Assembly: GCA_963545485.1 (NCBI GenBank)
Contig: CAUUJG010000004.1
Location: 23,186-87,185, forward strand
DNA length: 64,000 nucleotides
Reading direction: 5' to 3'
Source: an uncultured Clostridia bacterium
GTDB lineage: Bacteria; Bacillota; Clostridia; Christensenellales; CAG-917
Shown piece after piece: positions 17,515 through 56,294 of this stretch (the first letter of the stretch is position 1; each line of letters opens with the position of its first letter). A model generated the notes under the pieces. The model did no database searches and was not told the DNA's origin. It worked only from the letters and a program-made list of their open reading frames with translations. A program made the position numbers and the translations under genes.

Positions 17515-18812
17515 TTGCCTACACAAAATCTTTCAAAAATTTTGTTTATTATGTCCTCAGTAACACTCTCTCCTGTTATTTCATCTAGGTGCCTTTTTGC
17601 TGCAATCAAACAAACTAAAACCATATCTATATACATGTTGCTATCTATTTCATTGAGTTCTGCTATTGAATCTTTTATAGCTTCGTAATGTCTCTCTGTT
17701 GTTACCAAATCATAATTCTCTATATTGTTTATCTCTAGCCGAAAAAGTATTGCGTCGAGCAATTCAATAATTCCCTCTTTGTTTTTTGCACTTATATACA
17801 CAACATCTTTTCGTTTTTTTTCAATATGCCTATTAATCTTATCAATTTTATTAATTACATACAGTGTGTTCTTTTTTTCTACATCTATTTTTAAATTTCC
17901 TGTTGCATCCAACACCTCAAGGATAATGTCTGCATTTTCTTTTTCTGAAAGTCCTTTTTCTATTCCTTTGCGTTCAACTATATTTGAACTTTCTCTTATC
18001 CCTGCTGTATCTATGAAAGTAAGCTTTACTCCTTTATATTCTATACTTTCTTTTATTATATCTCTGGTTGTTCCCGGTATATCTGTAACTATTGCTCTTT
18101 CATCATCAAGAATAGCATTTAATATGGATGATTTGCCCACATTGACATCTCCCGTCAAAACACAGTTAATTCCATTTTTTATCACTCTGCCTGTCTTATA
18201 TGTATCCTTTAATTCTTCCAGCTGTTTTTTAATTTCCGGGACTACTGTTTTGTATTCTGTCAAAACTTCATCTTCCATTTCTTCTGGATAATCAAGTGAT
18301 GCACTCATTTCAACAATAAGAGATGAAAGATTCTCTGCTATTTTTTGAACTTTTTTTGCAAACTCTCCCTTCATTAATCTATATGCAGATTTAACAGCTG
18401 CAAGACTTTCTGCATTAATCATATCTATGACGCCTTCGCAGTCAGATAATCTCATTTTCCCATTCAAAAAAGATCTTCGTGTAAATTCGCCTCTTCCTGC
18501 AAGTTTAGCCCCCTGCTTTAGAATTGTCTCAAGAGCTCCTTGCATTATCCTACTTCCTCCATGCAAATAAAACTCGATCGTCTCTTCTCCGGTATATGCC
18601 TTCTCTGGTGGCATATAAACCGCATAACCAATGTCATTAAATCCATTGCCGACAAATGTTCCGAATTTCATAAGCAAAGGAGTCCATTCTTTATCCTTAC
18701 TTATAAAAACTTGTTCTGCTATTTTTTTTGATTTTTCTCCAGAAAGTCTTAATATACCAATGCCGCCAGAACCGCTAGGTGTAGCTATTGCGACTATCGT
18801 ACTGCTTCCCAT
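17511..18812 (-). CDS. mnmE: tRNA modification GTPase MnmE (TrmE)
   Basis: G domain GDVNVGKSS, DTAGIR, and the C-terminal CVGK signature. Confidence 0.95.
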   Translation of the reverse strand: MGSSTIVAIATPSGSGGIGILRLSGEKSKKIAEQVFISKDKEWTPLLMKFGTFVGNGFNDIGYAVYMPPEKAYTGEETIEFYLHGGSRIMQGALETILKQGAKLAGRGEFTRRSFLNGKMRLSDCEGVIDMINAESLAAVKSAYRLMKGEFAKKVQKIAENLSSLIVEMSASLDYPEEMEDEVLTEYKTVVPEIKKQLEELKDTYKTGRVIKNGINCVLTGDVNVGKSSILNAILDDERAIVTDIPGTTRDIIKESIEYKGVKLTFIDTAGIRESSNIVERKGIEKGLSEKENADIILEVLDATGNLKIDVEKKNTLYVINKIDKINRHIEKKRKDVVYISAKNKEGIIELLDAILFRLEINNIENYDLVTTERHYEAIKDSIAELNEIDSNMYIDMVLVCLIAAKRHLDEITGESVTEDIINKIFERFCVGK

Positions 18813-19532
18813 TTATTTTTTGCCGAAACTCTTGCTTCTTATTGTTCTTGTATTAAGCTTTGTAACTCCACCTGTATACATTCCTGCATATACATCTCCG
18901 TCTGCCACTTCGCCGTGTCTATCATATATGTCTGCACCCTGAGGGATTATAACAACTTGTCTTCTTCCCTCTTGTCCTCTGCTCTGTGTGTCTATACCTT
19001 CAACAGATGATAGTGCTGTATGTATGACTTTTCTTTCCCAAGAATGCATTGGCTCCAATACAACAGCTCTCTTTGTTGCCTTGGCTTTTGATGCCATTTT
19101 ATTCGCTAATGTAATTAAGTTTTGTATTCTTTTTTCTTTATATGTATCTGCCTCGACACTAATGCTCTTGCCAAAAGCTTTTGTATATTTTGCGGAAAGT
19201 AAAGATTGTATTGCGTTCAACATCTCTCCTTTCTGTCCTATAACTCTAGATATATCATTCCCACTAAACTTAATTTCTATCTCATGGTCGTTTTCTATTA
19301 ACTCAATAAAAACATCATATCCGAGCATATCTATAAGTACTTTTGCAAATCTTTTAATATCTTCCGTCTCGCATGGTTTTTTTGTAAGACGCACGGATGC
19401 TGTTGCAAAAGCACTTCCCTTGGATAAAACTTCTATCTCTACATCTTCTTTTCTACACTTCAGTTCTTCAAGTCCTTTTTCAATCGCAACTTCAACTGAA
19501 ACACCTGTCATTTCTATTGTTTTATTTTCCAT
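18813..19532 (-). CDS. jag: Jag/KhpB RNA-binding protein (KH and R3H domains)
   Basis: Sits in the conserved position between yidC and mnmE. R3H-type block LEPMHSWERKVIHTAL. Confidence 0.85.
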   Translation of the reverse strand: MENKTIEMTGVSVEVAIEKGLEELKCRKEDVEIEVLSKGSAFATASVRLTKKPCETEDIKRFAKVLIDMLGYDVFIELIENDHEIEIKFSGNDISRVIGQKGEMLNAIQSLLSAKYTKAFGKSISVEADTYKEKRIQNLITLANKMASKAKATKRAVVLEPMHSWERKVIHTALSSVEGIDTQSRGQEGRRQVVIIPQGADIYDRHGEVADGDVYAGMYTGGVTKLNTRTIRSKSFGKK

Positions 19533-19545
19533 ATTTTCCTCTATT

Positions 19546-20775
19546 TTATTTTTTCTCTTCTTTTTTGTCTTGTATCGCTGACACTATCTTAAACGGTCCT
19601 TGAACAAATATTGTAGAAAATAGTGAGCTTGCAAGCATGTATAATGCAAATGCCCCAGAATACATAATTGCAAAAATTCCCATTATCACCGGCATCATGT
19701 ATTTCATCATCTTCATGCTCGCCCCAGAACCAAGACCTTGTCCTGTCGACTTTTGATCTTTCTTTTCTTTTGAATCTTTTTCAGGCTTTAACGTAGGTGG
19801 TTCCTTTTGAGCAAAAAGAATAGATGTCAAAAAGCTTAAAGCTATTGTAAGTAATGGCAAAATTAAAAGCCCATTCCATTTGCCTTTATATTTCCCTCTC
19901 CCATATCCTCCTTTGCCCTGCACTTCTCCCATAACATCGTTATATCTATCTTTTGTAAGCCCTGTAAGCTTTGCAGAATCAAAACCAGATTGTCCTGTTA
20001 TTTCTTCATATGTTGGTACTGGTGTTTTCCATGTGTCTGAGACAAAAATGTTTTGTATCCATAAAAATCCAGTTTTGTTTTTTGAATCTTTTTTATTTTC
20101 TTTATGAGGCCACACAAATTTCTTTTTATTATCATAGCCATAATATTTTAAAACTGCTTTTTGAGCTTCTTTTTTTGCTTCCTGATATTCTTTGAATTTT
20201 TCAGGGGTCTTTTCAAGCTCCTCTTTGTAGTTGTTTCCCAATTTTTTTTGCATTACCTGCTCATATGTTCTATCAGCTCCTTGATATGTTTTTGCAAACT
20301 GATATGAAACTGTCTGTCTGAATCCTCCAAAAACAACAAAGAATATGACCATTGTAATAATTGTAGGCAAACATGACCCCAACATTGAATATTTCTCTCG
20401 TTTATATAAGGCCATTTGTTCTTGTTGATATCTTTGTTTATCATCGGCAAGCTTTTTTTGTAAGGCTTCAAGTTCAGGCTTCATTTTTTTCATCTTCTTG
20501 TTGTTCTTAACCATTATAATTTGTTGCCACACATCAAAAGGAAGAAGTATTAATCTTAGCGAAATTGTAAATATAATAATAGTCAATGAAAAGTTTGGAA
20601 CACTCTTGTTAATTGCCATCATAAACTTTGCCATAAAATGTTGCGGTTGTGGTATTTCCCCTGCTACATTTTGAATATTATCTTTTGCTCCGCAAGCAGA
20701 TAACAATAGAATTGTTAATGACAACATCACAAGTAACAAAAGTACTTTTGTTGATTTTTTTCTTAAATTAGCCAT
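19546..20775 (-). CDS. yidC: YidC/Oxa1-family membrane insertase (long K/E-rich insertion)
   Basis: Lipobox LLSACG and multiple TM helices, in the conserved position after yidD/rnpA. Confidence 0.9.
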   Translation of the reverse strand: MANLRKKSTKVLLLLVMLSLTILLLSACGAKDNIQNVAGEIPQPQHFMAKFMMAINKSVPNFSLTIIIFTISLRLILLPFDVWQQIIMVKNNKKMKKMKPELEALQKKLADDKQRYQQEQMALYKREKYSMLGSCLPTIITMVIFFVVFGGFRQTVSYQFAKTYQGADRTYEQVMQKKLGNNYKEELEKTPEKFKEYQEAKKEAQKAVLKYYGYDNKKKFVWPHKENKKDSKNKTGFLWIQNIFVSDTWKTPVPTYEEITGQSGFDSAKLTGLTKDRYNDVMGEVQGKGGYGRGKYKGKWNGLLILPLLTIALSFLTSILFAQKEPPTLKPEKDSKEKKDQKSTGQGLGSGASMKMMKYMMPVIMGIFAIMYSGAFALYMLASSLFSTIFVQGPFKIVSAIQDKKEEKK

Positions 20776-21005
20776 TTGGCCTTCCCTCTAAAGTTTTCTG
20801 GCACGGGATCAAATCCTCCTTTTGAAAACGGATTACATCTTATAACTCTTGCTATTCCCATTAGTGTTCCCGCAATCAAGCCCCATTTATCTATCGCATC
20901 ATACATATACATTGAACATGTAGGTCTATATTTACATTTCCTTCCTATCGCTTTGGATAATGTGTGCTTATATAATTTTAAAATCCAAAACGCTACTCTT
21001 TTCAT
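20763..21005 (-). CDS. yidD: Membrane protein insertion efficiency factor YidD
   Basis: 80 aa containing CKYRPTCS and NPFSKGGFDPVP signatures. Confidence 0.9.
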   Translation of the reverse strand: MKRVAFWILKLYKHTLSKAIGRKCKYRPTCSMYMYDAIDKWGLIAGTLMGIARVIRCNPFSKGGFDPVPENFRGKAKWLI

Positions 21006-21334
21006 TTATATGCTCCAGCTTTCAAAAAAATGTTATCAACAATTTCACTAATTTCCGAGTAATTTTTATCTGCTATTTTCTCGTTTGGCACGAGCACATA
21101 TAAATAATTTTTATCTATCCTCTCTATTCTCTTTGCCAGAATTTCCCGAATCCTTCTTTTAAGTTTGTTTCTATGGACTGCATTCCCGATTTTTTTTGAT
21201 ATTGATATCCCTATTTTTAGCCCTTCTTTTGATGGTGCTCTATGCAGTCTTATATATTCCGATCCTGTTTTTGTTCCTTTCTTATATACATAAGTAAACG
21301 AACCTCGCTTTTTTAAGCGATTTTCTCTTCTCAT
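21002..21334 (-). CDS. rnpA: Ribonuclease P protein component
   Basis: 110 aa containing the KKIGNAVHRNKLKRRIRE (RNR) motif, downstream of rpmH. Confidence 0.9.
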   Translation of the reverse strand: MRRENRLKKRGSFTYVYKKGTKTGSEYIRLHRAPSKEGLKIGISISKKIGNAVHRNKLKRRIREILAKRIERIDKNYLYVLVPNEKIADKNYSEISEIVDNIFLKAGAYK

Positions 21335-21335
21335 C

Positions 21336-21470
21336 TTATGCTGATAATTTAGCTCTTCCTCTTTGACGACGTCTCTTTATAACCCTTCTTCCACCTGTTG
21401 TTTTCATTCTTTCTCTAAAACCGTGCACCTTGCTTCTTTTTCTTTTTTTCGGTTGAAATGTTCTCTTCAT
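21336..21470 (-). CDS. rpmH: 50S ribosomal protein L34
   Basis: Not in the ORF track (44 aa). My translation is [44 protein letters not shown]. Confidence 0.95.
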
Positions 21471-26958: not shown

Positions 26959-29508
26959 TTAATTTTCGTTATTCTCAAGCTTTTCTTCTTTGTTCTGTTC
27001 TTCCCCTGTCTCATTTGCTACTGATTCAGAAACTTCTTTCTCTAACTCATCCTCATTCGGAGCAATTGCAATAGATGCTATTTTTGCTTCTTCATCCTTC
27101 ATTTTCATTATTCGAACACCTTGTGAAGTTCTTCCAAATCTGCTGATATCGTCTGTGGATACTTTTATCACTATTCCACTATCTGTTATAAGCATGAGGT
27201 CATTCCCTTTTTCAAGTATTTTTAAACTTGCCAAATCTCCAGTCTTCTCATTAAATGTTCCCGCTTTTATTCCTTTTCCTGCTCTTCTCTGCAATCTATA
27301 GTCATCCAATGAGCTTCTCTTGCCATATCCATTTGTCGTTACTGTTATAACTTCTTGCTCTGGATCTTTAATTACTGCTACATCTACCAATGTTTCTCCA
27401 TCATCAAGATCCATCGCCTTAACTCCTCTAGCTGCTCTTCCCATTGGTCGTACATCCTTTTCACTACATCTAATAACATTCCCATTGTTTGCTGCAATTA
27501 TCAATTCATCTTCTCCGTTGGTTAAAACTGCAGATATTAACTCATCATCTTCATTAAATTTGATCGCAATTTTTCCTGTTCTATTAATTTGGTCAAACTC
27601 TTCCAATGGTGTTTTCTTTATCAATCCCTGCTTCGTTGCAAGTACAAGATATTTGCCTGCCGTATCTTCTGGAATTGGTAAGATCGCTTTAATTTTTTCT
27701 TCCTGTCCGATTTCAAGTAGATTTATTATAGCTCTTCCTCTTGCAGTTCTACTTGCTTCTGGAATCTCATATCCTTGTTTTGCGAATGCCTTTCCTGTGC
27801 TTGTAAATATCATATATCTTTGATGTGAATTCCCTATAAAAATATATTCTATGAAATCCTCTTCTTTTGTTTTGTGAGCCGCAACTCCTATTCCACCTCT
27901 TTTTTGGGTCCTATATTCTGAAACAGCCATTCTCTTAATATATCCCTCATGTGACATAGAAATTACAATATCTTCTTCTGGGATCAAGTCTGCTTGATCT
28001 AAATCAAACTCGCCATATGCAAGCTGCGTTTTTCTTGGCACTCCATATTTTTCTTTAATTTCTGTAAGCTCATTACGTACTATCTCTTTTATGTTTTCAT
28101 CTGAAGAAAGAATTCTTTTGTATTCTTTTATTTCTTCTTCCTTTTCATGCTTTTCGTTTTCTATCTTCTCAACCTCAAGTCCCGTCAACCTTTGAAGTCT
28201 CATATCCAGAATTGCTGTTGCCTGTCTTTCAGAAAGGATAAATCTCTCCATCAAATTTGCCATTGCATCTTGTCTATCTTTTGATTTTTTCAACACTTCA
28301 ACAACTTCATCTATATTTGCCAGTGCAATGGATAACCCCTCTAGAATATGTAATCTTTCTTCTGCTCTTTCTAAATCAAATTTTGTTCTTCTAACAATTA
28401 CTTCCATTTGGTGTGATATGTAGTTTGTCAAAATTTCTTTTAGATTTAAAATTTTAGGAACTCCATCAACTAATGCTAGGAAGATTGTCGAATATGTTAT
28501 TTGAAGATTTGTCTTTTTAAATAATTGATTTAATAAAACTTGTGGTGAACAATCTCTCTTCGCAGTTACTGTTATTCTTAATCCTCTTCTATCTGACTCA
28601 TCAAGCAAGTCTGCAATCCCCTCTATTTTTTTCTCTTTATGAAGATCTGAAATTGCAACCACTAATTTTTCTTTATTTATCTGATATGGCAGCTCTGTTA
28701 TTATGATTTTCGCTCTTTCACCTTCCTTCTCCTCAATCTCACATTTTGCTCTTAAAATCACTTTTCCCTTTCCTGTCCTATATGCTTCTCTGAGCCCATT
28801 CCCTCCAAATACGAGCCCTCCTGTTGGGAAGTCCGGAGCTTTTATATATTGCATTAACTCTTCAATACTTAAATCCGCATTATTTAAAAGTGCTATTGTT
28901 GCATCTATTGCTTCTACTAAATTATGAGGTGGAATAGATGTTGCCATACCAACAGCAATACCGTCAGCTCCATTTACGAGGATGTTTGGAAACTTGGATG
29001 GTAAAACTACCGGCTGTTCTCTTGTTTCATCAAAATTTGGATAAAAATCTACTGTCTTCTTATCTATGTCTCTTAACATTTCAAGAGATATTTTGCTCAA
29101 CCTTGCTTCTGTATATCTATTTGCCGCTGCAGGATCTCCATCAATAGATCCAAAATTTCCGTGCCCGTCAATAAGCGGATCATTTATTGAAAAGTCTTGA
29201 ACCAGTCGCACCATAGCATCATAAACGGCTGCGTCTCCATGAGGATGATACTTCCCAAGAACATCCCCTACTGTCGTGGCACATTTCCTATACGGCTTAT
29301 CTGGGGTTAATCCACTTTCATACATTGAATATAAAATTCTTCTATGCACCGGTTTTAATCCATCTCTTACATCTGGTATTGCTCTAGAAATGTTAACCGC
29401 CATAGCATATGATATGAAAGATCTTTTCAACTGATTTTCTATATCTTGATTTACTATCTTTGATTTCTCTAAATGCTCAATAAAATCCATTCCTTTTTCG
29501 TTTGCCAT
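26959..29508 (-). CDS. gyrA: DNA gyrase subunit A
   Basis: [23 protein letters not shown] and the active-site region [10 protein letters not shown]. The likely start at 29508 is preceded by AGGAGG. The ORF is open to 29547. Confidence 0.95.
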
Positions 29509-29524
29509 ACTTTCTCTCTTCCTC

Positions 29525-31438
<1,914 letters not shown>

Positions 31439-31650: not shown

Positions 31651-31666
31651 TGTTTCACATGAAACA
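31651..31666. promoter_or_regulatory. parS-like centromere site TGTTTCACATGAAACA (15 of 16 matches to TGTTNCACGTGAAACA)
   Basis: Read directly in the gyrB-upstream intergenic region. There is a single mismatch at the central dyad. Confidence 0.6.
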
Positions 31667-31847: not shown

Positions 31848-33228
31848 TCATTTGTCAGCCTTTACTTTCCAGTATCCTGTTTTATTAGCCCCTATTCGCT
31901 CTATATATCCATTTTCTTTTAGGAACCTAATATTCTTTTCAACCGCTGTTAACCCCATTCCTACTATTACAGATAGTTGCACTTGAGTCACATTTGGATT
32001 ACTTCTTATTTCTTCTAAAATTTGTCTTCGTCTTGGGCTTAAAAACTTATGACTTTCGTCGCTATATTTTATTTTTTTTTATTTTATTAAACGGAATATT
32101 GACAGCTATCGAATTTTTTCTAAAATCAAATGCTTCTCTTCCATAAATGTCTATAATTTTAGGCACACCTCTTCCTGATTGTTCACTAATGTGCAACTGC
32201 AAAAATATGTCTGATAACTTTTTGTTTATGGGAACCGACTCGCCTCTAAAAAACCCTTCCTTTGTTTGCCTTGGGTCAAGAGTACCTCTTGAAAAAATTT
32301 CTATTCGATTGCTATATACTGTAATCATCGGAGCATTCTCATCCACCCATTTGTTATGAACAAAGGCATTTATAACCGCTTCTCTAAATGCACTCGCATC
32401 AAATAAGGCAATATCCTTTCTCGTTGTAAGTCTTCTTCTTTCGTCTGCTTGTATTATATTTATTACATCTGCATACTCTAATACTTTATCTAAACTCAAC
32501 AGAATGCATGTGTTTCCAAATTCCTTCACAGAGTAAAGAGGGCTTGCTTTTGTTTCCCCACTAAATATAGAAACCCTTACTGGCATATGACTATCATCTG
32601 ACAACAGTTGAGCCATTAGATTATATTTGCCGTTGTTTGTCTGCAGCCCAAGATTTTTCTTAAATGTTTCGTTTTTTAAAGAAATCCCTCTGCCTGCATA
32701 ATAAGTGAAGAGTCTCTCAAATGTTAAATCTTGATATTCTGACTCCATTGTTTCTATTGTTTCTTCTTTGTTTCTTAATATTTCAAAAAGGTTTGCTTCT
32801 CTATCGTGATACTTCGCAATATTAACTTTGCTTGATCCTATTCTAATATATCTTATCCCATTAAATGCGGTTGGGACCTTTTTAGCCATCGGAATTTTTA
32901 ATATAACAAGATTCTTATTGTCAAATTTTACTTCACAAAAAGAGAAAGCAATATCTGGCGTTAACTGCCTTGCAAGATAGTGTTCTAAAGGTTCTCCTTT
33001 AAAATCTGTCCTGTAATCAAAGTTTGTCCCCAAAACTTCATGCGTCTTATCTTTTATTCCCCAAACAAGGTATGCATATTCCTGTCTACAAATTGCAGCT
33101 GCATTTGACAATGCTGATATGTATTCGCCTATCTCATGTGCTTCACACCAGTTTTCCTTAAATTCAAACCATTCTTCCTCTGTTTTATGGTTGATCAAAT
33201 TTTTTATGAGTTCAATATTATTATTCAT
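31848..33228 (-). pseudogene. AlbA_2 (Schlafen-like) + HATPase_c_4 + winged-HTH putative regulator, frame broken at an A9 tract
   Basis: ORF 32062..33228 (388 aa) ends NKIKKNKI*. The adjacent frame continues YSDESHKFLSPRRRQILEEIRSNPNVTQVQLSVIVGMGLTAVEKNIRFLKENGYIERIGANKTGYWKVKADK* (stop at 31848-31850). The switch is at the T9 run 32072-32080. Confidence 0.7.
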
Positions 33229-33231
33229 ACT

Positions 33232-33267
33232 TTTATCCCCTACTTTATCCCCTACTTTATCCCCTAC
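33232..33267. repeat. Perfect 3 x 12-bp tandem repeat (TTTATCCCCTAC; minus strand GTAGGGGATAAA)
   Basis: Read directly. It lies 4-39 nt upstream of the ATG at 33228, and each unit carries an SD-like AGGGGA on the coding strand. Confidence 0.9.
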
Positions 33268-34924
33268 TTTTATTGTAACTCTAATTTGTTGGAATGCAGA
33301 TTTTTTTTATTGCTTTGTTGATATTGTGCCCGTTTTTTGCTTTAAAAAGCCTTACTTTTAGACTTTTTGCTAATCTTTGCTTTTATTTTTTGTCTTAGAC
33401 CATTGTTGTGATCTTTCCATCTATTAAAAAGTGTCCTTCCCTTTGTCTTACAATATTAGTCCTAGTTCTTCTCCAAGCTGTTCTATATGTTTTGGCATTT
33501 TGCAAAAGATCCACCCTGTATTATTTGAACTCCTTGCTTTCCTATAATTATCTATTCTTATCAAAATATTTGATAATCTTGTTTTTTTACTTATAACTAA
33601 TTCTAAACTAGAATTTCGCCGACTCATTACCACTGTTACTGCCGAAATATATATTCTTTGAGGTGTTTTTATAGTGAAAAGTATAAGAAATTGATTAAGT
33701 AATCACTTTGTATTCTTCAATTTTTAAATACGAATTTCTTCTTAAACTTTTTGCATTGTTCGCTTTTCGGTGCTTTATTTGTTTCTCGTCTTCTTGTTTC
33801 TCATTTATTTTTATGTTTTTTATTATATCTAACTCAGTATTTTGTAATTATTTTTTGTTTTTATACCATTTTGTTGTGTTATGGTTTTTTCTTGTTTGTT
33901 TTTTTGGTGCATTTGTTTTTTTTAACTGCCGCCTTTTCTATTTGTTTGTGGCGTCTTGTTGGTGGTTTCTATAATGATTCATTTTGTATCTCACCCAACA
34001 ACTCACTGCTGGAGGTCAACAAAAACATTTCAATAGTTCTTTTTTGGATTGATATGCCAAAATTCACACAGATACACATTCAAAAACCGCCAAATATGGT
34101 TTGTAAATGTCTATATATCGACAATCTCCTTAAGTATCATCTTAATTCTTCAAGGTTTTCCTATTTTTACCAATTCTTGCTGCGGCTTCTTTTTTGGTGC
34201 ACTACACGCCCTGGGGTTTTATGCTTTTTTTTGTTAATTTTGTATTTTTATTACGTCTAACCCTATTATTTAAACTACTTGTTTTAATTTTTGCGATTTC
34301 TGATGTTTTTGCTTTATTTAATATTTATTTTTGGTGCATTTCATAAGTTTTGGAAGCCTCTTTTGCCTTCCATTTTGTATATTTTTTTCTGCTTCTTGTT
34401 GTTTGGGTAAATTTAATCCTTGATCCTTGCACCCGGCGTCATTATTCTTTTTTGATTGTTTTGCTAGAAGCGTTGTTTTTAAGCCATTACTTAAACCCCC
34501 TATCCTATATTTTAGCAGTTTTATGCTTTTGAGTTTTGGCTCTTTTTTTTTATGTAATCTATTCTTGCATTTTTATTCCGCCTTTTCATCCTCAAGCTTT
34601 TTAATTCATTTGTTCTTTATTTTTTATTTGTTTTTGTTTCAACTATAACTAAATCTTTTATTGTTAGTTCTTTTTATTCAACTTAACCAACCCTTTCTTT
34701 TGCAGTCTGTTTCTGTTTTAAAATACCTTACCTTTGTACTCCACAAACACTCTTTCAGTGTGTTTTTCTATTTTTTTGGTGCTTTTTCGTTTTGTTTTAA
34801 AAATTAGAATTCTATCTGTAAAAAGCCCGTTTTTTAGTTTTTTGTTTTAAAATGTCGTTGTTTTTAGACTAATTTTCATTATTCCCTTGATTGATTTGCT
34901 ATTTGTAACGATTTTTTATTTCTT

Positions 34925-35656
34925 TTAGTTTTTAACTTTTGGTGCAAGATGTTTAAAAAATTCCTCGGTTGCTTCTATAATTTTTGAGATGTACTTTTCA
35001 TATTTCGTCATTCCTTTTTGTACGGTTTCTTCAAATGTCTGGTCTGCTGCTTGATCTGCATTATCTGAAACTATTTTTAATGATGCTAGTGGAATATTGT
35101 TCATCTCACATGCCATTGCTATACCTGCTAATTCCATATCACAAATATCTGCGTAAAATGTTTTATTTAAATCTTCCTTTCTTTTTTTGTTTGCTATAAA
35201 TTCATCACCAGAAGCTAAAGTAACTAATTTAAAAGACCCCAGTGTCTTTTCATATATTTTTCCAATCAGATCATTATCTAAATTGAAATATATACCGTTC
35301 CTATTATTATATTGTCCTTTTGGAATATTATTTATTGCCGAAAGATCAAATTGATAATGTGCTACTTTTTCTACAATAACCAAATCATTTAATCCCACTT
35401 TATTGCTTATTGCTCCTACAAATCCAAAATTTAATACTATTTCAACATCAAAATGAGAAATAAGTACTTGCGTCGCTATTGCTGCCCTTATTTCTCCTAT
35501 TCCTGATTTCACTAAATATATTGTGTTATTAATATCTTCTATTTTAATTATTTTTACATTAGAAATTTTACATTCTTCCATTTTCATCTTTTTACCGTAT
35601 TCTTTATATATTGGAAGCATTTCCTCATACATTGCTGTTATTATTCCTATTCTCAT
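34925..35656 (-). CDS. 5-prime-methylthioadenosine/S-adenosylhomocysteine nucleosidase family (PNP_UDP_1)
   Basis: IGIITAMYEE opening, SGIGEIRAAIATQ, and the DMELAGIA....SLKIVSD pattern typical of MtnN/Pfs. Confidence 0.75.
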   Translation of the reverse strand: MRIGIITAMYEEMLPIYKEYGKKMKMEECKISNVKIIKIEDINNTIYLVKSGIGEIRAAIATQVLISHFDVEIVLNFGFVGAISNKVGLNDLVIVEKVAHYQFDLSAINNIPKGQYNNRNGIYFNLDNDLIGKIYEKTLGSFKLVTLASGDEFIANKKRKEDLNKTFYADICDMELAGIAMACEMNNIPLASLKIVSDNADQAADQTFEETVQKGMTKYEKYISKIIEATEEFFKHLAPKVKN

Positions 35657-35747: not shown

Positions 35748-36452
35748 ATGGTGCAAGAAGTTGTTTTGTTAAAAAATTATTTAAATAGTATGTCTATACC
35801 GTTAAAAGAAGAACAAATATCTCTCCTTTTATCTTTTATGGATCTTGTTTTAGAAAAAAACAAAACTGTTAATCTCACATCTATTACTTCTCAAGATGAC
35901 TTTATTCAAAAACATCTTGTAGATAGTTTAACAGCGTTAAAATATATATCTGATAACAGTACAGTTCTTGATTTAGGTGTTGGTGGAGGGTTCCCTCTTA
36001 TTCCTTTAGCTTGTATAAAATCTTCCTGTTTCTTTACGGGAGTTGAGAGTATTGGAAAAAAAATTAATTTTTTGCAAGATGCATCAAAACATCTTAATTT
36101 GAATAATACAAAATTTATTAATGCAAGAATTGAAGATCTGAATTGTTTAAAAGAATCTTTTGATTATATAACAGCTCGTGCTGTTGGTCATTTAGGATTA
36201 CTTCTTGAATTAACAATTCCTTTTTTAAAAATTGGTGGAAAATTTATTGCCTACAAAACAAATGAAAGCGAGTTAGAATTTTTACAAAAAGAATTAAATA
36301 TTTTAAATTGTAAACTCCTACGTGTTGATAAATTTAATCTACCAAATGGTGATAATAGGTGTCTTTTGATTTTTGAAAAATTAAACAAAACAGATAAAAT
36401 ATATCCAAGAAATTTTTCTTTAATAAAAAAATATCCTTTATATGAGGTTTAA
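35748..36452 (+). CDS. rsmG: 16S rRNA (guanine527-N7)-methyltransferase RsmG (GidB)
   Basis: SAM-binding motif DLGVGGGFPLIPLA, and TARAV. 234 aa. Confidence 0.9.
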   Translation: MVQEVVLLKNYLNSMSIPLKEEQISLLLSFMDLVLEKNKTVNLTSITSQDDFIQKHLVDSLTALKYISDNSTVLDLGVGGGFPLIPLACIKSSCFFTGVESIGKKINFLQDASKHLNLNNTKFINARIEDLNCLKESFDYITARAVGHLGLLLELTIPFLKIGGKFIAYKTNESELEFLQKELNILNCKLLRVDKFNLPNGDNRCLLIFEKLNKTDKIYPRNFSLIKKYPLYEV

Positions 36453-37274
36453 ATGCAAAGAAAAGAAATTAAATATATTTCTATTGATTTAATTGAAAGA
36501 AATAATAATCAACCAAGAAAAACATTCACTGAAGAAGGTCTCGAAGAATTAACAAATTCTATAAAAGAACATGGTATTATTCAACCAATTGTCGTCACAA
36601 AAAAAGGTGATAAATACATGATAATTGCTGGGGAAAGACGCTTTAGAGCTTCTTTAAGAGCAAATTTAACAGAAATACCATGTATTGTTGAATCACTTGA
36701 AACAGTTGAAATTCAAGAAATTGCATTAATAGAAAATTTACATAGAAGAGATTTAAACCCTATTGAAATTGCTAAAAGTATGAAAGATTTATTAGAGTTT
36801 TATGATTTAACTCAAGAAGAACTATCTATTAAAATTGGTAAATCAAGAGCTTACATAGCAAATATGATAAGACTTTTATCTCTTCCTGAAGAAGTACGAC
36901 AAATGTTAATAGAAAATAAGATAACCGCCGGTCATGCAAGAGCTCTTCTGTCTATTCAAAATAAAGATGAATTAATTAGAATTGCAAAAAAAATAGTTGA
37001 AAAAAATTATAATGTAAGAGATGTTGAAAATGAAGTTAAACTTTTTGAAATTAAATCAAAACCTATTTTAAAACAATCTAAAAAACCTCAACAAAAACAA
37101 ACATTAGAAATGAAAAATTTTATAAATGATTTAAAATATGTTTTAGCAACAAGTGTAAAAATAATTGGTAATGAACATAAAGGTCGTATTTATATCGACT
37201 ACTACAGTACAGATGATCTTACAAGAATTGCAAATTTATTAGATTTATATAAACGAAAAATTGAAAATATTTAA
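36453..37274 (+). CDS. parB: ParB/Spo0J/Noc-family partition protein (no adjacent parA)
   Basis: ParB box motifs QPRK and GERRFRA, and an HTH (ELSIKIGKSRAYIANMIRLL). The start abuts the rsmG stop. Confidence 0.9.
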   Translation: MQRKEIKYISIDLIERNNNQPRKTFTEEGLEELTNSIKEHGIIQPIVVTKKGDKYMIIAGERRFRASLRANLTEIPCIVESLETVEIQEIALIENLHRRDLNPIEIAKSMKDLLEFYDLTQEELSIKIGKSRAYIANMIRLLSLPEEVRQMLIENKITAGHARALLSIQNKDELIRIAKKIVEKNYNVRDVENEVKLFEIKSKPILKQSKKPQQKQTLEMKNFINDLKYVLATSVKIIGNEHKGRIYIDYYSTDDLTRIANLLDLYKRKIENI

Positions 37275-37276
37275 AT

Positions 37277-37473
37277 TGTGTATAACTCCATTAAAATGTT
37301 AATAATTTGTGTATAACATTATATAAGTTATCCACAGCCAAAATAGTATATATTGTGGTTTTATTATATTTTAAATACTTTATATTGTGGTTTGTAAAAG
37401 TTATCCACTTGTAAACATGCCTTATATATGTTAATATAATTAATATTATTAATATAAATATAAGGGAGACGAT
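37277..37473. promoter_or_regulatory. DnaA-box cluster plus AT-rich tract (oriC-like) directly upstream of dnaN
   Basis: TGTGTATAA at 37277-37285 and 37308-37316. Perfect TTATCCACA at 37328-37336. TTATCCACT at 37401-37409. A 13-nt direct repeat TATATTGTGGTTT at 37349 and 37381. A nearly pure A/T stretch at 37420-37465. Confidence 0.65.
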
Positions 37474-38571
37474 ATGAATTTTTTCTGCGAAGTAAAAGAA
37501 TTAAAAAATGCATTAAATAAATTGGTAGGTGTTGTTTCTTTAGATAAAACTCAATCTGTTTTAGATCACATAAAAATAATAACTAATGATAAAGCAGTTA
37601 AATTAATAGCAACAGATACAGAAATACAAATAGAAAAAATAATAAATGCAAAAATAAAAAAAGATGGTGAAGGACTTGTTGTAGGTAAAAAGTTTTGTGA
37701 ATTTGTATCAAAATTAACTTGTGATGAAGTTGAAATAATTCAAGAAGAACCAGGCAGTTTAAAAATAAAATATGTTGATTCTGAAACAATTCTTCCATCT
37801 GCAGATGTAAATGAGTTTCCAAAATTAATAGAAATATCAAGTAATGAAAAATTTGATATTAAAATGAATGATTTAAAAGAATTAATAGAAAAAGTAGATT
37901 TTAGTTTATCTACAGAGAGTAATAGACCTGTTTTAAATGGGTGCTTATTTGAAATTGAAAGTGGAAAAATAAAAGCAGTTGCACTTGATGGATATAGAAT
38001 AGCAATAGCAGAATGTGAAATTAAAAATAAAGAAATAAATAAAAAAATATTAATTCATGGTAGACAATTAAGAGAAATAAAAAAGATTTTAGATAATAAT
38101 AATGAAGAAATTACATTTATAATTTCAAATGATAAGATTTGTATTGATCTATTACATACAAAAATAGTTTCTCAATTAATGAGAGAAGAATTTATAAATT
38201 ATAAAAATGTAATACCAGAAGCAAAGGCAACAGAAATAATAATTCAAAAAAAAGAATTTGAAAATACAATACAAAGAGTTGAAGTAATTAATAGGGATGT
38301 TAGAAATAATGATGTTTGTTTAACAGTAAAAGAACAGCATCTTGGTATAAGTGCTCAAAGTCTTTATGGAACTATAAATGAAAAATTACCAGTTTCTGTA
38401 ACTGGGATAGATCAAAAAGTAAATTTAAGTATTAGGTTTATAATAGATTGTTTAAAAGTTATAAAAGAAGAAGAATTAATAATTGGTATTGCAACGAGTA
38501 CAAAACCAGTGTTAATTAGAAATAAAGAAAATACTTGGAATTATATTATTGTTCCAATTATGAAAAAATAA
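37474..38571 (+). CDS. dnaN: DNA polymerase III beta sliding clamp
   Basis: 365 aa with three-domain clamp-like length and conserved blocks (RPVLNGCLFE, LDGYRIA). Confidence 0.9.
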   Translation: MNFFCEVKELKNALNKLVGVVSLDKTQSVLDHIKIITNDKAVKLIATDTEIQIEKIINAKIKKDGEGLVVGKKFCEFVSKLTCDEVEIIQEEPGSLKIKYVDSETILPSADVNEFPKLIEISSNEKFDIKMNDLKELIEKVDFSLSTESNRPVLNGCLFEIESGKIKAVALDGYRIAIAECEIKNKEINKKILIHGRQLREIKKILDNNNEEITFIISNDKICIDLLHTKIVSQLMREEFINYKNVIPEAKATEIIIQKKEFENTIQRVEVINRDVRNNDVCLTVKEQHLGISAQSLYGTINEKLPVSVTGIDQKVNLSIRFIIDCLKVIKEEELIIGIATSTKPVLIRNKENTWNYIIVPIMKK

Positions 38572-38576: not shown

Positions 38577-39941
38577 TTATATTTTAGATAATTGATTATT
38601 AATATCTGAAATTTGTAGTTTTAATTTTTTATTAATTTTTAAATCATTTTCTATTTTATTTTTAGCATGCATTATTGTTGTATGATCTCTATTAAAGAAG
38701 TTTCCAATTGCACTAAGTGGAATAGAGAGGTTTTGAGAAATAAGATAAATTGCAATTTGTCTTGCAGAAACAATTTCTTGTTTTCTTGAAGATGAGAAAA
38801 TATCTTTAATAGAAATATTAAAATAAGAAGAAACTGTTTCAAGTATTGCATCCTTATTAATACTTTTACCTGAATTTTTTTCATTTATAATTTCAGAAAG
38901 CACTTCAGAAGCCATTTCTTTTGTTTCTATATTTTTCATTAATAAAGAAGATGAAAAGATGATTTTTGTTAAATAACCTTCCATTTCTCTAATACTCATT
39001 GTTTTTGAAATTTCAGCAATATAAAATGCAACTTCATTTGTAAGATTAAAATTTTCTCTCATTGCTTTATATTTTAATATTGAGACTCTTGTTTCAATTT
39101 TAGGAGTTTGAATATCAACAATTAGACCACAGCCAAATCTTGAAGTTAATCTTTCTTCTAAATTAGAAAGGTCCTTAGGAGCTTTGTCAGAAGTGATAAT
39201 AATTTGTTTTTGGGAATTATATAATTTATTAAATAAATTAAAAAATGCTTCTTGAGTAGCTGTTTTATTTGCTAAAAATTGAATATCATCAATCATAAGA
39301 ACATCACAGTGTTTATATTTTTCTTCAAATAAAGATTTACTGTTTTTTTTATCATTGTTAATTGAATTTAAAAAATCATTAACTAGTTCTTCTGTAGTAG
39401 CATAAGTGATTTTAATTTTTTTATTATGTTTAAAAATATAGTTTCCAATAGCATGAAGAAGGTGCGTTTTCCCGAGTCCAACTCCACTATATATAAACAG
39501 AGGATTATATTTTTTTCCAGGGTCAGTAGCAACTGCTTTAGCAGCATTTAGAGCGAAAGAGTTTGAATCTCCACTTATGAAAGAATCAAAAGTAAATTTA
39601 TCAAGGAACGGATTTTTTTTACTTTCAGTGATTGTTTCTTCTTCTATCTTTTCATTTGTGTCAATATTTTTAAGAGAATTATCATTTCTATCTAGAACGA
39701 TTAAAATATTTTCTACTTCATCATTGAAGAGTCTTACAGTATTTAGAATTTTATTTTCATAATTTTCATTCAATGCCTGTTTTACCATTTTTAATTTGGT
39801 AGACAGAATAAAAGTACCGTTTTTAATTTTTATAGGTTTTAAATTTGGATACCAAATGTCACATGCAAGAGAATTAACATCCTTGTCATTTTTTTTGAAA
39901 TAATTCAGCACCTTTTCCCATAAAATAATTAATTCATTCAT
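38577..39941 (-). CDS. dnaA: Chromosomal replication initiator DnaA
   Basis: Walker A GVGLGKTHLL, the box VII region, and the C-terminal DNA-binding signature NRDHTTIMHA. 454 aa. Confidence 0.95.
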   Translation of the reverse strand: MNELIILWEKVLNYFKKNDKDVNSLACDIWYPNLKPIKIKNGTFILSTKLKMVKQALNENYENKILNTVRLFNDEVENILIVLDRNDNSLKNIDTNEKIEEETITESKKNPFLDKFTFDSFISGDSNSFALNAAKAVATDPGKKYNPLFIYSGVGLGKTHLLHAIGNYIFKHNKKIKITYATTEELVNDFLNSINNDKKNSKSLFEEKYKHCDVLMIDDIQFLANKTATQEAFFNLFNKLYNSQKQIIITSDKAPKDLSNLEERLTSRFGCGLIVDIQTPKIETRVSILKYKAMRENFNLTNEVAFYIAEISKTMSIREMEGYLTKIIFSSSLLMKNIETKEMASEVLSEIINEKNSGKSINKDAILETVSSYFNISIKDIFSSSRKQEIVSARQIAIYLISQNLSIPLSAIGNFFNRDHTTIMHAKNKIENDLKINKKLKLQISDINNQLSKI

Positions 39942-40070
39942 AAGAAAAATAATAACATAAAAAGAAATAAAACATCAAAAATGCATATTAAGAGAATACA
40001 AAATAAGTAAGAAAAAAATATAGATGATATAATAAAAAATATTATTAAAAACAGGTTAAACGATATAAAA

Positions 40071-41165
40071 ATGTATATCAAAAAACTAGAAATTAAAAAT
40101 TTTAGAAGTTATAAGCATCTTCAATTGATTCCAGAAAAGGAGTTAAATTTTTTTCTTGGGGCAAATGCAACTGGGAAAACAAATATTCTTGAAAGTATAT
40201 ATTATGCAGCTTTGTTAAGATCGCCAAAAACAAATCAAGACAAAGAAATAATTCGCTTTGGGGAAGAATTTGCAGTAATAAAAATGGAGATAGCAAGAAA
40301 ACATATAACAAATGAGATTAAGATATATTTAAACAGACAGGGTGAAAAAAAAATATTAATAGATGATAACCCAATTAGAAAGATAAGTGACATTATAGAT
40401 AAATTAGGAGTGGTGTTTTTTTGTCCTGAAGATATGACGGTAGTGCAGGGTTCTGCGATTGCGAGAAGAACATTTTTAAATATAGGGATGAGTATTGTGA
40501 GCTCTGTTTTTTATGAAGAATATAACAATTATAAAAAACTTTTACAGCAGAAGGTGTGTTTATTGAAAAAACCAACCATTACACAGGAAACCCTAAAAGA
40601 ACTCGATGCTTGGGATGATTTATTATCAAAAAGTATATTTTGGATTATCAAACAAAGAGAGACATATATTACAAAACTTAGTGAAATAGCAAAAGAAAAA
40701 TATAGAAGGATTTCAAACAATAAAGAAGAATTAAACATATTTTATGAATCAACAATACAAAAACATGCAACAAGTGCAGAAATTTTTGAAGAAATTAAAA
40801 AAGAAAGAGAAAAAGATATAGAATATGGATGTGCAAGAAAAGGTCCACATAGGGACGATATTATATTTAGTTTAGATGGTGTTGATGCTCGTAAATTTGC
40901 ATCACAAGGGCAGCAGAGAACAGTTGCACTTGCATTAAAATTATCAGAACTTGAGCTATATAGCCAATATAGAGGGGAGTCGGCAATATTATTATTGGAT
41001 GATGTTTTGGGAGAACTAGATAGATATAGACAAGAAGAGCTTATAAAAGCAATATATGGACAGCAAACATTCGTTACTTCTACAGAATATGACAAACAAT
41101 TTAAAGGCACAATTTTTGAGGTTTTTAAAGAAAACAACAATTCATTTATAAAGTGCATAAGATAA
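40071..41165 (+). CDS. recF: DNA replication/repair protein RecF
   Basis: Walker A GANATGKTN, signature SQGQQRT and Walker B LLLDDV. Confidence 0.9.
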   Translation: MYIKKLEIKNFRSYKHLQLIPEKELNFFLGANATGKTNILESIYYAALLRSPKTNQDKEIIRFGEEFAVIKMEIARKHITNEIKIYLNRQGEKKILIDDNPIRKISDIIDKLGVVFFCPEDMTVVQGSAIARRTFLNIGMSIVSSVFYEEYNNYKKLLQQKVCLLKKPTITQETLKELDAWDDLLSKSIFWIIKQRETYITKLSEIAKEKYRRISNNKEELNIFYESTIQKHATSAEIFEEIKKEREKDIEYGCARKGPHRDDIIFSLDGVDARKFASQGQQRTVALALKLSELELYSQYRGESAILLLDDVLGELDRYRQEELIKAIYGQQTFVTSTEYDKQFKGTIFEVFKENNNSFIKCIR

Positions 41166-51323: not shown

Positions 51324-52881
51324 TGTTATGTAAGGAATCTTGTGTAAATAGTTTTTTTAGAAGTAAAAAAAGCAAATATATAATCTGTTGATATCAGTCT
51401 ATGTTTAATCTGCTGTATTGGTCAAATGATAATCGTTGAATTTTCGAAAAGTAGCTGATTTTGGGAGTTAGGAAGCAACCCCAAATTTGGGGTTGCTTCC
51501 TAAAACCAGTTGAATAAATTTATTAAAATTATATCTGTGCCAAGTCGGCAACCATTGCCAAGTTTTGATTTCCAGTTAAAGTCTTCATCAATTTGCATTA
51601 ATATTGTCCGATGAGGCGATTTGCTGATTCAACATTTGGGAATATTTTGATTATCTTTTCTCGTTTTCTAATTGAGCAATTAACTCTTTCAAGAGCATTA
51701 TTGGTGAATATACATCTATGAATTTCTGGATTAAATTCCAAATATTTAAAAGAGTATTGATACCAATCATCAAGGGATTTCATTGCCTTATATTGTTTAT
51801 TTGAAACTAGAAAATCCATTAATACATTAGTACATTTATTAACAACTTTATAGTCATTAATTTTCTTAAGTTCTTGCAACATTATGCCTGTTTGTTTTTT
51901 ATATTTATTAGCTACATTATTGAGAGTATTTCGAAATAAATGTGCTGCACAGTATTGCCAACCAGCATTAGGAAACACCTCTTTGATTGCTGTTTTTAAG
52001 CTTTCATTATTATCTGTTATGAAGAGTTTAGGGTTTATTAGACCTTTTTCTTTTAGGCAAGTTAAAAAATTAATATATTCATATTTATTTTCAGAATTAG
52101 CTATTTCATAGCCTAAAATGGTCTTTCTACCATCATTATTATATCCAAGGGCTATATACACACTCTTTTTAACTACCTTATTGCCTTCACGCACATCAAT
52201 ATACATGGCATCTACATGTACATATTTATGTATCCCAACGATTGGTCTTGTCTGAAATTCATCAACATCTGGCTGAATAGTTTTAACAATCTTAGATACT
52301 GTTGAATGAGAAAAACTTGTGCCACAAAGTATTTCTGTTATGTCCTTTATTTTGCGTGTTGAAACCCCATCTAAAACTATTTCAATTAATGTCGCACAAA
52401 ATGCTTTTTCAACCCTATTAAATCTCTCAAAAACAGTTGTTTGAAATTCCCCATTTCTATCTCTTGGAAGTTGCAAATTTAACTTACCAATACTTGTTGC
52501 AAGTGAACGAATATATGAACCATTTCTATATCCTTTACGCTTCTCAGTCCTTTCTGATTTTTTTGCATCTAGAAATGTCTCCATCTCATATTTCATCACC
52601 TCATTCAATATTTTCTGATATAACTCTGATGAGGCAAAAATTGATGAAACACTGGAATTTTTAATATCATCCCTTATTTTTTCAATGTCCACAGAGATAT
52701 TTATTATCCCATCATTATTTTTCTTTTTACTTGTTTCTCCGAAAATGCTATTTTTTTCTTGAGCCATACTCAAACCTCCTATTAATTTTTTCGCAAACTA
52801 AATTATATATTAGGTCTTGAGCTTTTGGCTCTTTTTTTTATTTATCCATTTTTACTTTTACACACAATTATTTACATAATC
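51324..52881 (-). mobile_element. IS256-family insertion sequence (about 1.56 kb)
   Basis: Imperfect terminal inverted repeats: left TGTTATGTAAGGAATCTTGTGTAAA, right (reverse complement) GATTATGTAAATAATTGTGTGTAAA, 19 of 25 identical. Both ends are flanked by the direct repeat GATGATT (51317-51323 and 52882-52888). The target reading frame is restored if the IS and one repeat copy are removed. Confidence 0.8.
51598..52773 (-). CDS. IS256-family (Mutator-like) DDE transposase
   Basis: 391 aa with length and blocks typical of the family (..YVHVDAMYIDVR.., ..FITDNNESLK.., ..QYCAAHLFRN.., TNNALERVN). Confidence 0.85.
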   Translation of the reverse strand: MSMAQEKNSIFGETSKKKNNDGIINISVDIEKIRDDIKNSSVSSIFASSELYQKILNEVMKYEMETFLDAKKSERTEKRKGYRNGSYIRSLATSIGKLNLQLPRDRNGEFQTTVFERFNRVEKAFCATLIEIVLDGVSTRKIKDITEILCGTSFSHSTVSKIVKTIQPDVDEFQTRPIVGIHKYVHVDAMYIDVREGNKVVKKSVYIALGYNNDGRKTILGYEIANSENKYEYINFLTCLKEKGLINPKLFITDNNESLKTAIKEVFPNAGWQYCAAHLFRNTLNNVANKYKKQTGIMLQELKKINDYKVVNKCTNVLMDFLVSNKQYKAMKSLDDWYQYSFKYLEFNPEIHRCIFTNNALERVNCSIRKREKIIKIFPNVESANRLIGQY

Positions 52882-55329: not shown

Positions 55330-56294
55330 TCAGGGTTGTACCGATATTTATTGCGATGTATTGAAGAACATCAATTACAACAGAATTACCAAATTGTTTG
55401 TAAGCTTGGTTTGAAGAAGGATGAATTAAATATGAATCGGGGAATCCCATAAGCCTAGCACATTCTCTGGGATGTAGCCTCCTTGTTTTTCCATTAATAA
55501 GGTATCCTCCGGTTTTTGCAAATGCTCCGCCACCATTGGAAGAAAGAGTAATGGCAATACCCTTTGGACTATATATCCGCTCACCCTGTCTACCCTTTCC
55601 AACAGTTCCAATACGAATTGGTTTTGTTATGTCATCGTTAATGTGATTTTTTTTAAAATCAAATCAGAACGATTAATAACAAGGTTGGAAACTTCATCGT
55701 CAGATAACAGTAAATTTTCAAGACAAACAGAAAGTTTAAAAGCCTTGGGGAAGATAAATTTATTAATACCTAAATCCTTTCTAAAACAAACAATATAAAT
55801 TCGTTCTCTATTTTGTGGTATACCAAAATCTTGAGAATTAAGCACATCAGAAAAGAAATTGTAACCAATATCCGAGAGTGTTTCTTTTACAACTTTTAAA
55901 GTATTGCCGTTATCATGAGTGGCGAAGTTTTTAACATTTTCTAAAAAGAGTACTTTTGGTTTTTTTGCTTTAGCGATTCTTGCTACATCAAAAAAAGGGA
56001 TCCACGGCTATCTTTAAAGCCTTTTTGTTTTCCGCTTATAGAGAATGCTTGGCAAGGGAATCCTGCACATAAGATATCATGGTCTGGAATTGTGTTTTCA
56101 TTTACAAGTGTAATATCGTCATCAGGAATTTCTGCAAAGTTTATTTTATAAATTTCTTTTGCAGACTTATCGCACTCACTTGAATAGACACAGCTTGCAC
56201 CACAAGACTCTAAAGCAATGCGAAATCCACCAAGACCAGCAAATAAGTCTATAAATTTTAAACCAAATAAACTACTGTTTTTGTGTTTAAGCAC
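55310..56294 (-). pseudogene. C5-cytosine DNA methyltransferase, M.HhaI-like (predicted GCGC), interrupted by two 1-nt frameshifts
   Basis: All C5-MTase motifs are found across three frames: DLFAGLGG (I), GFPCQAFS (IV), LENVKN (VI), QNRERIY (VIII), TRRLHPRECARLMGFPDSY (IX) and QFGNSVVI (X). Frame switches occur at the A7 run 55990-55996 and the T8 run 55647-55654. The probable GTG start at 56294 is preceded by GAGG. Confidence 0.85.

Follow-up and report, generated by a model that had tools for sequence, protein, structure and literature searches.

The window, by which we mean the whole 64-kb stretch of DNA analysed here, contains a spacer of 199 bp (37275-37473) between a ParB/Noc-like gene and dnaN. 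Read from left to right, and with the genes assigned by means of Pfam and NCBIfam, rsmG and the ParB/Noc-like gene, both pointing rightwards, precede the spacer, which is followed by dnaN pointing rightwards, by dnaA pointing leftwards and by recF, which diverges from dnaA. The features of this neighbourhood are the following (genes from Pfam/NCBIfam unless another basis is given; "origin" designates the candidate studied here, namely the spacer):

15.6-21.5 kb, - strand: mnmG, mnmE, jag, yidC, yidD, rnpA, rpmH
26959-29547, - strand: gyrA
29525-31438, - strand: gyrB
31651-31666: parS-like palindrome TGTTTCACATGAAACA, differing at one position from the parS consensus of B. subtilis, 5.7 kb to the left of the origin
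32062-33228, - strand: Schlafen/AlbA_2-like ORF
33229-34924: non-coding stretch of 1.7 kb
34925-35656, - strand: nucleoside phosphorylase (PNP)
35748-36452, + strand: rsmG
36453-37274, + strand: ParB/Noc-like gene, directly after rsmG, left flank of the origin (Pfam ParB_N and HTH_ParB)
37474-38571, + strand: dnaN (beta clamp), right flank of the origin (Pfam; TIGR00663)
38577-39941, - strand: dnaA, full length, convergent with dnaN
39942-40070: divergent dnaA-recF spacer (dnaA promoter region)
40071-41165, + strand: recF
from 41222, + strand: glycogen operon

The spacer is thus surrounded by genes which are indicators of an origin (rsmG, the ParB-like gene, dnaN, dnaA and recF), with gyrB and gyrA 6 kb to the left. 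The DnaA encoded here has the motif DHTT, with which boxes are read, and among solved structures that of the B. subtilis protein is the closest. The first-pass annotation had placed an origin-like region between parB and dnaN, "not next to dnaA". The latter statement is literally true but overstated, as only dnaN separates the spacer from dnaA, which is convergent with dnaN and lies 1.1 kb from the box cluster described below; the candidate origin is still within the dnaA/dnaN neighbourhood. The left neighbour, called parB, has ParB-type domains and its score with the NCBIfam model parB_part exceeds the cut-off of that model, but its best NCBIfam match is nucleoid_noc (235 bits, under the cut-off of 315 bits) and no parA gene was found beside it. 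In addition to the parS-like palindrome listed above, a second and weaker parS-like match (3 mismatches) is found within the ParB-like gene itself, at 36689-36704.

We scanned both strands of the whole 64-kb window for the DnaA box TTATCCACA with at most one mismatch. This gives 28 boxes where 21.6 are expected, which is overall not above chance. The spacer has the following ones, to which one box with two mismatches has been added:

37277-37285, - strand: DnaA box TTATACACA, 1 mismatch, fitting TTWTNCACA, within the copy of a 15-mer repeat at 37272-37286
37297-37305, - strand: weak DnaA box TTATTAACA, 2 mismatches, 11 bp start-to-start from the box at 37308
37308-37316, - strand: DnaA box TTATACACA, 1 mismatch, within the second copy of the 15-mer repeat at 37303-37317
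37328-37336, + strand: DnaA box TTATCCACA, perfect match
37401-37409, + strand: DnaA box TTATCCACT, 1 mismatch, nearest to the candidate unwinding element and pointing at the AT tract

The four boxes in about 130 bp which had been reported at first, one perfect and three with one mismatch, in both orientations, are all in place and lie inside 133 bp. The box at 37328 is the sole perfect TTATCCACA in the window. Everywhere else, a stretch of 150-300 bp has at most two boxes with no more than one mismatch. Four boxes in 150 bp were not reached once in 1000 first-order Markov simulations of the window, nor in 20000 simulations run with the composition of the spacer itself. The claim that this is the only convincing cluster in the window is therefore borne out by the scan, and no other cluster is seen within the 64 kb around the skew switch described below; a second one may lie elsewhere on the chromosome, of which the scan covers these 64 kb. 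In particular, no other spacer within 6 kb of the cluster has boxes. We rejected as alternative origin sites the PNP-rsmG spacer (91 bp here, 50 bp in the relative L001), which has no box even at 2 mismatches, the dnaA-recF spacer, the AT tract upstream of gyrB at 31452, the 1.7-kb non-coding region and the region upstream of rpmH, all of which are without boxes. We likewise rejected as a DnaA-box array the three tandem copies of TTATCCCCT at 33232, as both of their mismatches fall in the CACA core and they belong to a variable island.

Two kinds of repeats are found among the boxes. The 15-mer TAAWTTGTGTATAAC occurs twice in the spacer, with one left-facing box per copy, and a direct repeat of 21 nt, AAATAsTwTATATTGTGGTTT, occupies 37341-37361 and 37373-37393 on the + strand, 32 bp apart. 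The duplicated 13-mer TATATTGTGGTTT noticed in the first-pass annotation at 37349 and 37381 lies within this 21-mer and has no further exact copy in the window. Each 21-mer holds TGTGGTTTn, a DnaA box with 3 mismatches. The repeats between the boxes, whose core is ATATTGTrG, may be either weak DnaA boxes or sites for another factor.

To the right of the last box comes a stretch with the following features:

37410-37421, + strand: 12-nt gap TGTAAACATGCC between the box at 37401 and the AT tract, ending in the GC cluster GCC
37422-37463, + strand: AT-rich candidate DNA unwinding element of 42 nt (composition, duplex stability)
37462-37468, + strand: dnaN ribosome-binding site AAGGGAG (sequence)

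The gap possibly contains a degenerate tandem box TTGTAAACA (37409-37417), which has 3 mismatches here and 2 in L001 and L078. Where about 45 nt of almost pure A/T up to the dnaN ribosome-binding site had been announced, we find 42 nt with a single G; no pure A/T run in the window is longer than that at 37431-37463, and no 40-mer duplex is less stable, according to nearest-neighbour energies, than the one starting at 37423. Within the tract, the 9-mer TTAATATAA is repeated three times in tandem (37431-37457). The inverted 8-mers CCTTATAT/ATATAAGG which were said to bound the tract are present in the window, the right arm overlapping the ribosome-binding site, but they are not kept in L005 or L001 and we dropped them as a structural element. 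A promoter scan finds a -35-like TAAACA (37412-37417) and a -10-like TATAAT (37435-37440), which are likely to be a dnaN promoter of the sigma-70 type.

To the left the GC skew is about -0.3, to the right about +0.25, and nearly all genes follow the same polarity, so that the skew switch is an origin and not a terminus. The minimum of the cumulative skew is at 35916, at the coding-strand switch and 1.4 kb from the box cluster. This switch, formerly given as 35.7 kb, about 1.6 kb left of the cluster, is found between 35657 and 35747, and the offset was correct. With an origin at 37.4 kb, the leftward fork would meet the transcription of rsmG and the ParB-like gene (1.5 kb) head-on. Their whole-gene skews (+0.09 and +0.11, against +0.21 to +0.36 in the co-oriented genes to the right) would fit head-on genes of the left replichore. 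Per-gene and third-codon-position skews of these two genes in the window, in L005 and in L001 are intermediate and inconsistent between species. The skew therefore resolves about 2 kb at best and does not separate 35.7 kb from 37.4 kb.

Close homologues of this DnaN are very few: they have 95%, 94%, 88% and 62% identity, after which the identity drops to 37%. Our genome collection contains two species of the lineage, L005 (the 95% relative) and L001 (DnaN 62%), labelled "uncultured Clostridia bacterium". A protein-pattern scan of the JGI metagenomes found no further relatives, and a DNA-pattern scan of the same metagenomes gave 62 matches, none of them from the lineage. Both L005 and L001 keep the order of the window, with leftward PNP, rightward rsmG and ParB-like gene, the spacer, rightward dnaN and the divergent dnaA-recF pair. 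In L001, all five box positions are kept with their orientations while the sequence between the boxes has diverged, and three of the five boxes are nearer to the consensus than those of the window. In L001, TTATCAACA is found at the position of the 37277 box, the weak box at 37297 is the one-mismatch TTATTCACA (and a strong box in the outgroups), and the box at 37308 is a perfect TTATCCACA. Both L005 and L001 conserve the box at 37328, of which the outgroups have a variant. Among the members of the lineage, the dnaA-recF spacer shows little conservation.

As outgroups we took four contigs, L011, L076, L077 and L078, the DnaN of which is about 37% identical. All four have dnaA, a spacer of 199-212 bp, dnaN, rpmH (not called in L011), rnpA, yidC and so on, in this order and on one strand; upstream of dnaA one finds recF on the opposite strand in L011 and L077, and yabP in L078. 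Their dnaA-dnaN spacer aligns with the spacer of the window along its length, best over the right-hand 90 nt, where the common order is a box AAAAGTTATnnAC, a 12-nt gap, TTAT with an A/T array of 3-nt periodicity, an AT-rich tract, the ribosome-binding site and ATG. In the alignment of the seven lineages, GTTATnnAC of the box at 37401 is invariant, as are T..ACA in the 12-nt gap and the TTAT which opens the trio tract. The gap ends in CAGCCC, CACACC, CAGTCT or CATGCC (CATTAG in L001), GCC or CCC standing before TTAT in five of the seven lineages, and a purine-rich block is aligned before ATG in all relatives. Further to the left, the ATATTGTrG core of the 21-mers recurs at two homologous positions in L011, L077 and L078.

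This conserved block also fits a dnaN promoter of the sigma-70 type: all seven aligned sequences have a -35 TnnACA followed, after 17-18 bp, by a -10 TATTAT or TATAAT. Hence, part of the conservation across lineages may reflect transcription and not unwinding. The invariant TTAT right after the GC cluster falls in the spacer between -35 and -10, and it would be explained by the trio proximal to the box, not by the promoter. Most likely the promoter and unwinding functions overlap, and DnaA at the box at 37401 would also influence the expression of dnaN.

The published DnaA-trio motif is 3'-[G/A]A[T/A]-5' (PMC7561715, PMC8287927), and in the basal unwinding system the modal distance between box and trio found in a survey is 10-13 bp (PMC8287927). 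In the window, TTATCCACT faces the trio-like repeats and is followed by the 12 nt of TGTAAACATGCC ending in GCC, then by TTA and its continuation, which is the arrangement of this basal system. The outgroup arrays, (TTA)6TTT in L077 and TTA TTA TTA TGA TTA TTA TTT in L011 and L076, read 3'-AAT-5' on the opposite strand, inside the published motif. The triplets of the window are of the same AAT type and in the same frame as the (TTA)n arrays of the relatives but are interrupted (TTA TAT ATG TTA ATA TAA ...). As for the GAT-repeat trios which the first-pass annotation had suggested looking for beside the boxes, no clean array of the GAT type is present in the window. We also applied the formal rule of PMC8287927, which asks for three or more NAN triplets, beginning 0-16 bp past a box with at most two mismatches and read on the opposite strand to 5'-TTATCCACA-3'. 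The first run of three NAN triplets in the window starts 18 bp after the box at 37401, 2 bp over the limit. L001 passes, and the rule is clearly satisfied by L011, L076 and L077. Of shuffled sequences, about 50% pass as well; the rule discriminates little in DNA as rich in A/T as this, and we set the test aside as uninformative alone. On the + strand of the window there are 11 in-frame NAN triplets in a row (p ~0.001), a run which stems from the 9-mer tandem repeat and which L001 does not have.

We consider it very likely that the spacer 37275-37473 is the chromosomal oriC, or at least the part of it which unwinds. Several traits by which an oriC is recognised are found together in it: at least three DnaA boxes with a mean spacing below 100 bp, in a cluster which is unique in the window and not due to chance; an AT-rich, easily melted element adjoining the boxes, in which both the longest A/T run and the weakest 40-mer duplex of the window are found; the minimum of the GC skew and the switch of the leading-strand genes within 1.4-1.6 kb, at a coarse resolution; and boxes conserved in related genomes, all five in L001 (where the gene order is kept too and the sequence between the boxes diverges) and the core of the module in the four outgroups, whose dnaA-dnaN spacers align with it. 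Moreover, the orientation of the box at 37401 and the gap behind it match those of E. coli R1 and the peak at 10-13 bp (PMC8287927), DnaA is intact with a canonical DNA-reading motif, and no other spacer within 6 kb has boxes. The first-pass reading of the parB-dnaN spacer as an oriC-like unwinding region is thus reinforced by the significance of the boxes, by the position of the weakest DNA, by the skew switch, by the conservation in L001 and by the alignment with the outgroups.

The binding of DnaA, the site of unwinding and the use of the promoter are inferred from anatomy and homology, in the following way. DnaA, encoded 1.1 kb away, would fill the five 9-mer boxes, left-facing at 37277, 37297 and 37308 and right-facing at 37328 and 37401, and possibly also the two weaker sites inside the 21-mer repeats. 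An oligomer of ATP-DnaA would nucleate at the box at 37401 and grow rightward over the 12-nt gap and its GC cluster until it reaches the lower strand of the trio-like repeats of the TTA type. The 42-nt AT tract (37422-37463) would then melt and the helicase would be loaded there. As the tract carries the likely dnaN promoter, the occupancy of the boxes by DnaA would probably also set the transcription of the beta clamp.

The basal unwinding system of B. subtilis consists of boxes 6/7, a GC cluster, DnaA-trios and an AT-rich 27-mer. The spacer of the window is similarly built, with a right-facing box, a short gap with a GC cluster, A/T repeats of 3-nt periodicity and an AT-rich tract; like incC, the dnaA-dnaN part of the B. 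subtilis origin, it stands immediately upstream of dnaN; the DnaA of B. subtilis is the closest to that of the window; and where the window has its repeats, the homologues in the outgroups have clean (TTA)n trios. It differs from the B. subtilis origin in having neither dnaA on its left flank nor clusters of the incA/incB type upstream of dnaA, and in its trios, which are interrupted and of the AAT and not the GAT type. In E. coli, too, a box (R1) points to the AT-rich element with its 13-mers, with a gap of 13 nt for 12 nt here, as we checked on the MG1655 oriC sequence; the window has neither GATC sites nor 13-mers, IHF and Fis sites were not identified in it, and its flanking genes are others.

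Since the outgroup dnaA-dnaN spacers align with it, the spacer of the window would be the unwinding module usually found next to dnaN ("oriC2" or incC type of Firmicutes), still attached to that gene. It appears to have been left there after a local rearrangement, its only oddity being that dnaA was flipped and now lies beyond dnaN. If the window is read on the reverse strand, one finds recF and dnaA diverging, then dnaN facing dnaA, then the origin; in comparison with the outgroups, the origin-dnaN unit and the recF-dnaA pair thus appear inverted relative to each other. In the lineage of the window, dnaN is followed by the divergent recF-dnaA pair in inverted position and preceded by rsmG and the Noc-like gene. 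The cluster rpmH-rnpA-yidD-yidC-jag-mnmE-mnmG (15652-21470, - strand) is classical and intact, yet a distance of 16 kb separates it from the origin; rsmG and the Noc-like gene, no longer attached to it, are now found beside the origin in inverted position. In the outgroups, a cluster of the rpmH-rnpA type is on the + strand after dnaN. In two other lineages with 37% identity (L012, L013), dnaN stands alone with no dnaA nearby, and is preceded by a very AT-rich spacer of 380-410 bp (2695-3104 and 2835-3211, respectively) almost without consensus boxes. The gene order of the origin region is highly fluid in these uncultured Clostridia-like groups.

The spacer might be one component of an origin in two parts, as in B. 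subtilis, C. difficile or H. pylori, with a second DnaA-box region required for opening. The characterised origins of Firmicutes are indeed two-part, and in vitro the dnaN-side region of C. difficile was not opened on its own but only together with the region upstream of dnaA (PMC7561715). C. difficile is moreover in a similar taxonomic neighbourhood (the relatives' MAGs are labelled Clostridia), and its oriC2, between dnaA and dnaN, resembles the spacer as a dnaN-side region with 5-9 boxes, a trio (trio-like repeats in the spacer) and an unwinding element (PMC7561715). The window has no counterpart of oriC1, which lies between rpmH and dnaA in C. difficile: here dnaA is inverted behind dnaN, and rpmH is 16 kb away in the other replichore, without boxes upstream of it at 21.5 kb. 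There is no second box cluster beyond dnaA, the dnaA-recF spacer (39942-40070) being without a box at up to 2 mismatches, and dnaA does not stand between two sub-regions but beyond dnaN, on the opposite strand. The spacers upstream of dnaA in the four outgroups (L011 4262-4444, L076 318-519, L077 2255-2443, L078 846-985) have no box at up to 1 mismatch either. Boxes with 3-4 mismatches would escape the scans used. Compact one-part origins with five boxes are known: that of T. maritima has about 150 bp (PMC10316083). Its minimal oriC (149 bp) resembles the spacer in being a one-part element of 150-200 bp, with about five boxes of mixed orientation and trinucleotide repeats in the unwinding element; it differs by a different 12-mer box, by essential TAG repeats and by its genomic context (PMC10316083). 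We consider a second required region improbable. The origin looks one-part and, as the window and the four outgroups are all without boxes upstream of dnaA, a one-part origin seems to be clade-wide.

It is somewhat harder still to believe that the boxes are mainly a DnaA-controlled operator of dnaN, or a titration site, while replication starts elsewhere, for instance at 35.7 kb or outside the window. The -35/-10-like pair does stand exactly downstream of the box at 37401, its hexamers are conserved columns of the seven-way alignment, no other dnaN promoter is obvious save read-through from rsmG and the ParB-like gene, and the skew minimum at 35916 is closer to the strand switch than to the cluster. 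At least five boxes in both orientations, however, surpass the needs of an operator; the PNP-rsmG spacer at the strand switch is short and box-free at 2 mismatches; there is no second cluster in the 64 kb centred on the skew switch; and the homologous spacer of the outgroups is at the canonical dnaA-dnaN position of an origin. As promoter and origin functions commonly overlap, an operator would mostly add a function to the origin without replacing it. Finally, a pile-up of box-like words by chance in AT-rich intergenic DNA, to which only the unremarkable count of boxes over the whole window could lend colour, is hardly conceivable and may be regarded as already refuted as far as statistics and conservation can do so, given the outcome of the simulations and the box positions which are conserved across species despite diverged flanks.

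One may go further and, tentatively, take the origin as a self-contained one-part module of about 200 bp which is tied to dnaN and not to dnaA, with all the consequences which follow; taken together, these are doubtful. If this were true, the unwinding element would double as the dnaN promoter and DnaA would gate the supply of clamps. Box-mediated autoregulation of dnaA is widespread and dnaA promoters without boxes are unusual; here the dnaA promoter would have lost all its boxes, and with them the classical autoregulation. The two conserved ATATTGTrG elements would be sites for a second origin factor other than DnaA. A rearrangement would have uncoupled the module from dnaA, leaving dnaA, rsmG and the ParB-like gene head-on to the forks.

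In cyanobacteria, origins flanked by dnaN and free of dnaA are the rule, which has been explained by dnaA leaving its ancestral position beside dnaN (PMC4009838). The candidate origin of the window is similarly linked to dnaN and not flanked by dnaA, and the same explanation fits it; the differences are that the cyanobacterial boxes are TTTTCCACA and that dnaA is usually far away there, while the boxes of the window are of the E. coli type and dnaA is at 1.1 kb. The window would thus be an example from the side of the Firmicutes of the point made for cyanobacteria, namely that an origin remains beside dnaN when the latter is parted from dnaA. Together with the outgroups, it suggests that a one-part origin of 200 bp and a box-free region upstream of dnaA may be usual in the clade, in contrast with the two-part origins of model Firmicutes. 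For a lineage known only from metagenome bins, an origin call aids the closure of genomes, the orientation of the replichores and the estimation of growth rates from coverage; the understanding of origins in general is unchanged by it.

Some other features of the window deserve mention. The non-coding stretch 33229-34924 (1.7 kb) is without credible ORFs on either strand, and its + strand is very T-rich, with an AT skew of about -0.4. It contains 4 of the 8 copies of TTTTGGTGC found in the window, where 0.8 are expected. It is about 90% identical in L005 and absent from L001, which has AAA_14/DUF4143 and RhuM genes there; the island between gyrB and the origin differs between the two species. 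Rfam gave nothing on the non-coding DNA near the origin, nor on this stretch even at E <= 1, and a search of the stretch with the neighbouring proteins of the relatives gave only a 54-aa ORF of L005 and no gene remnants. It could be made of decayed genes or correspond to a long non-coding transcript of the - strand. At 33232-33270, immediately upstream of the start of the Schlafen/AlbA_2-like ORF (33228, - strand), the 12-bp unit TTTATCCCCTAC is repeated three times in a perfect tandem. Every unit includes TTATCCCCT, which departs from the DnaA box at two positions; as both are in the CACA core, the tandem is probably unrelated to DnaA. The Schlafen/AlbA_2 and HATPase_c_4 gene itself (31851-33228, - strand) is split in comparison with the 459-aa version of L005: residues 1-401 and 384-459 match in two frames, which points to a frameshift, a pseudogene or an assembly error.

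Further away, an apparent conjugative or integrative element occupies 183-14405 (- strand), with a coupling protein of the VirD4/TraG type (11501-13684), a VirB4/TraG-like ATPase (3665-5965), DUF3846 and surface proteins with Ig-like and BspA-type LRR domains; a LexA-like S24 peptidase at 14784-15383 may be listed with it. A transposase of the IS256/Mutator family is found at 51598-52773 (- strand), where the GC skew dips. Lastly, a truncated C-5 cytosine methylase fragment of 142 aa (55983-56521) abuts a tRNA-Asn (56446-56521), which suggests an integration scar.
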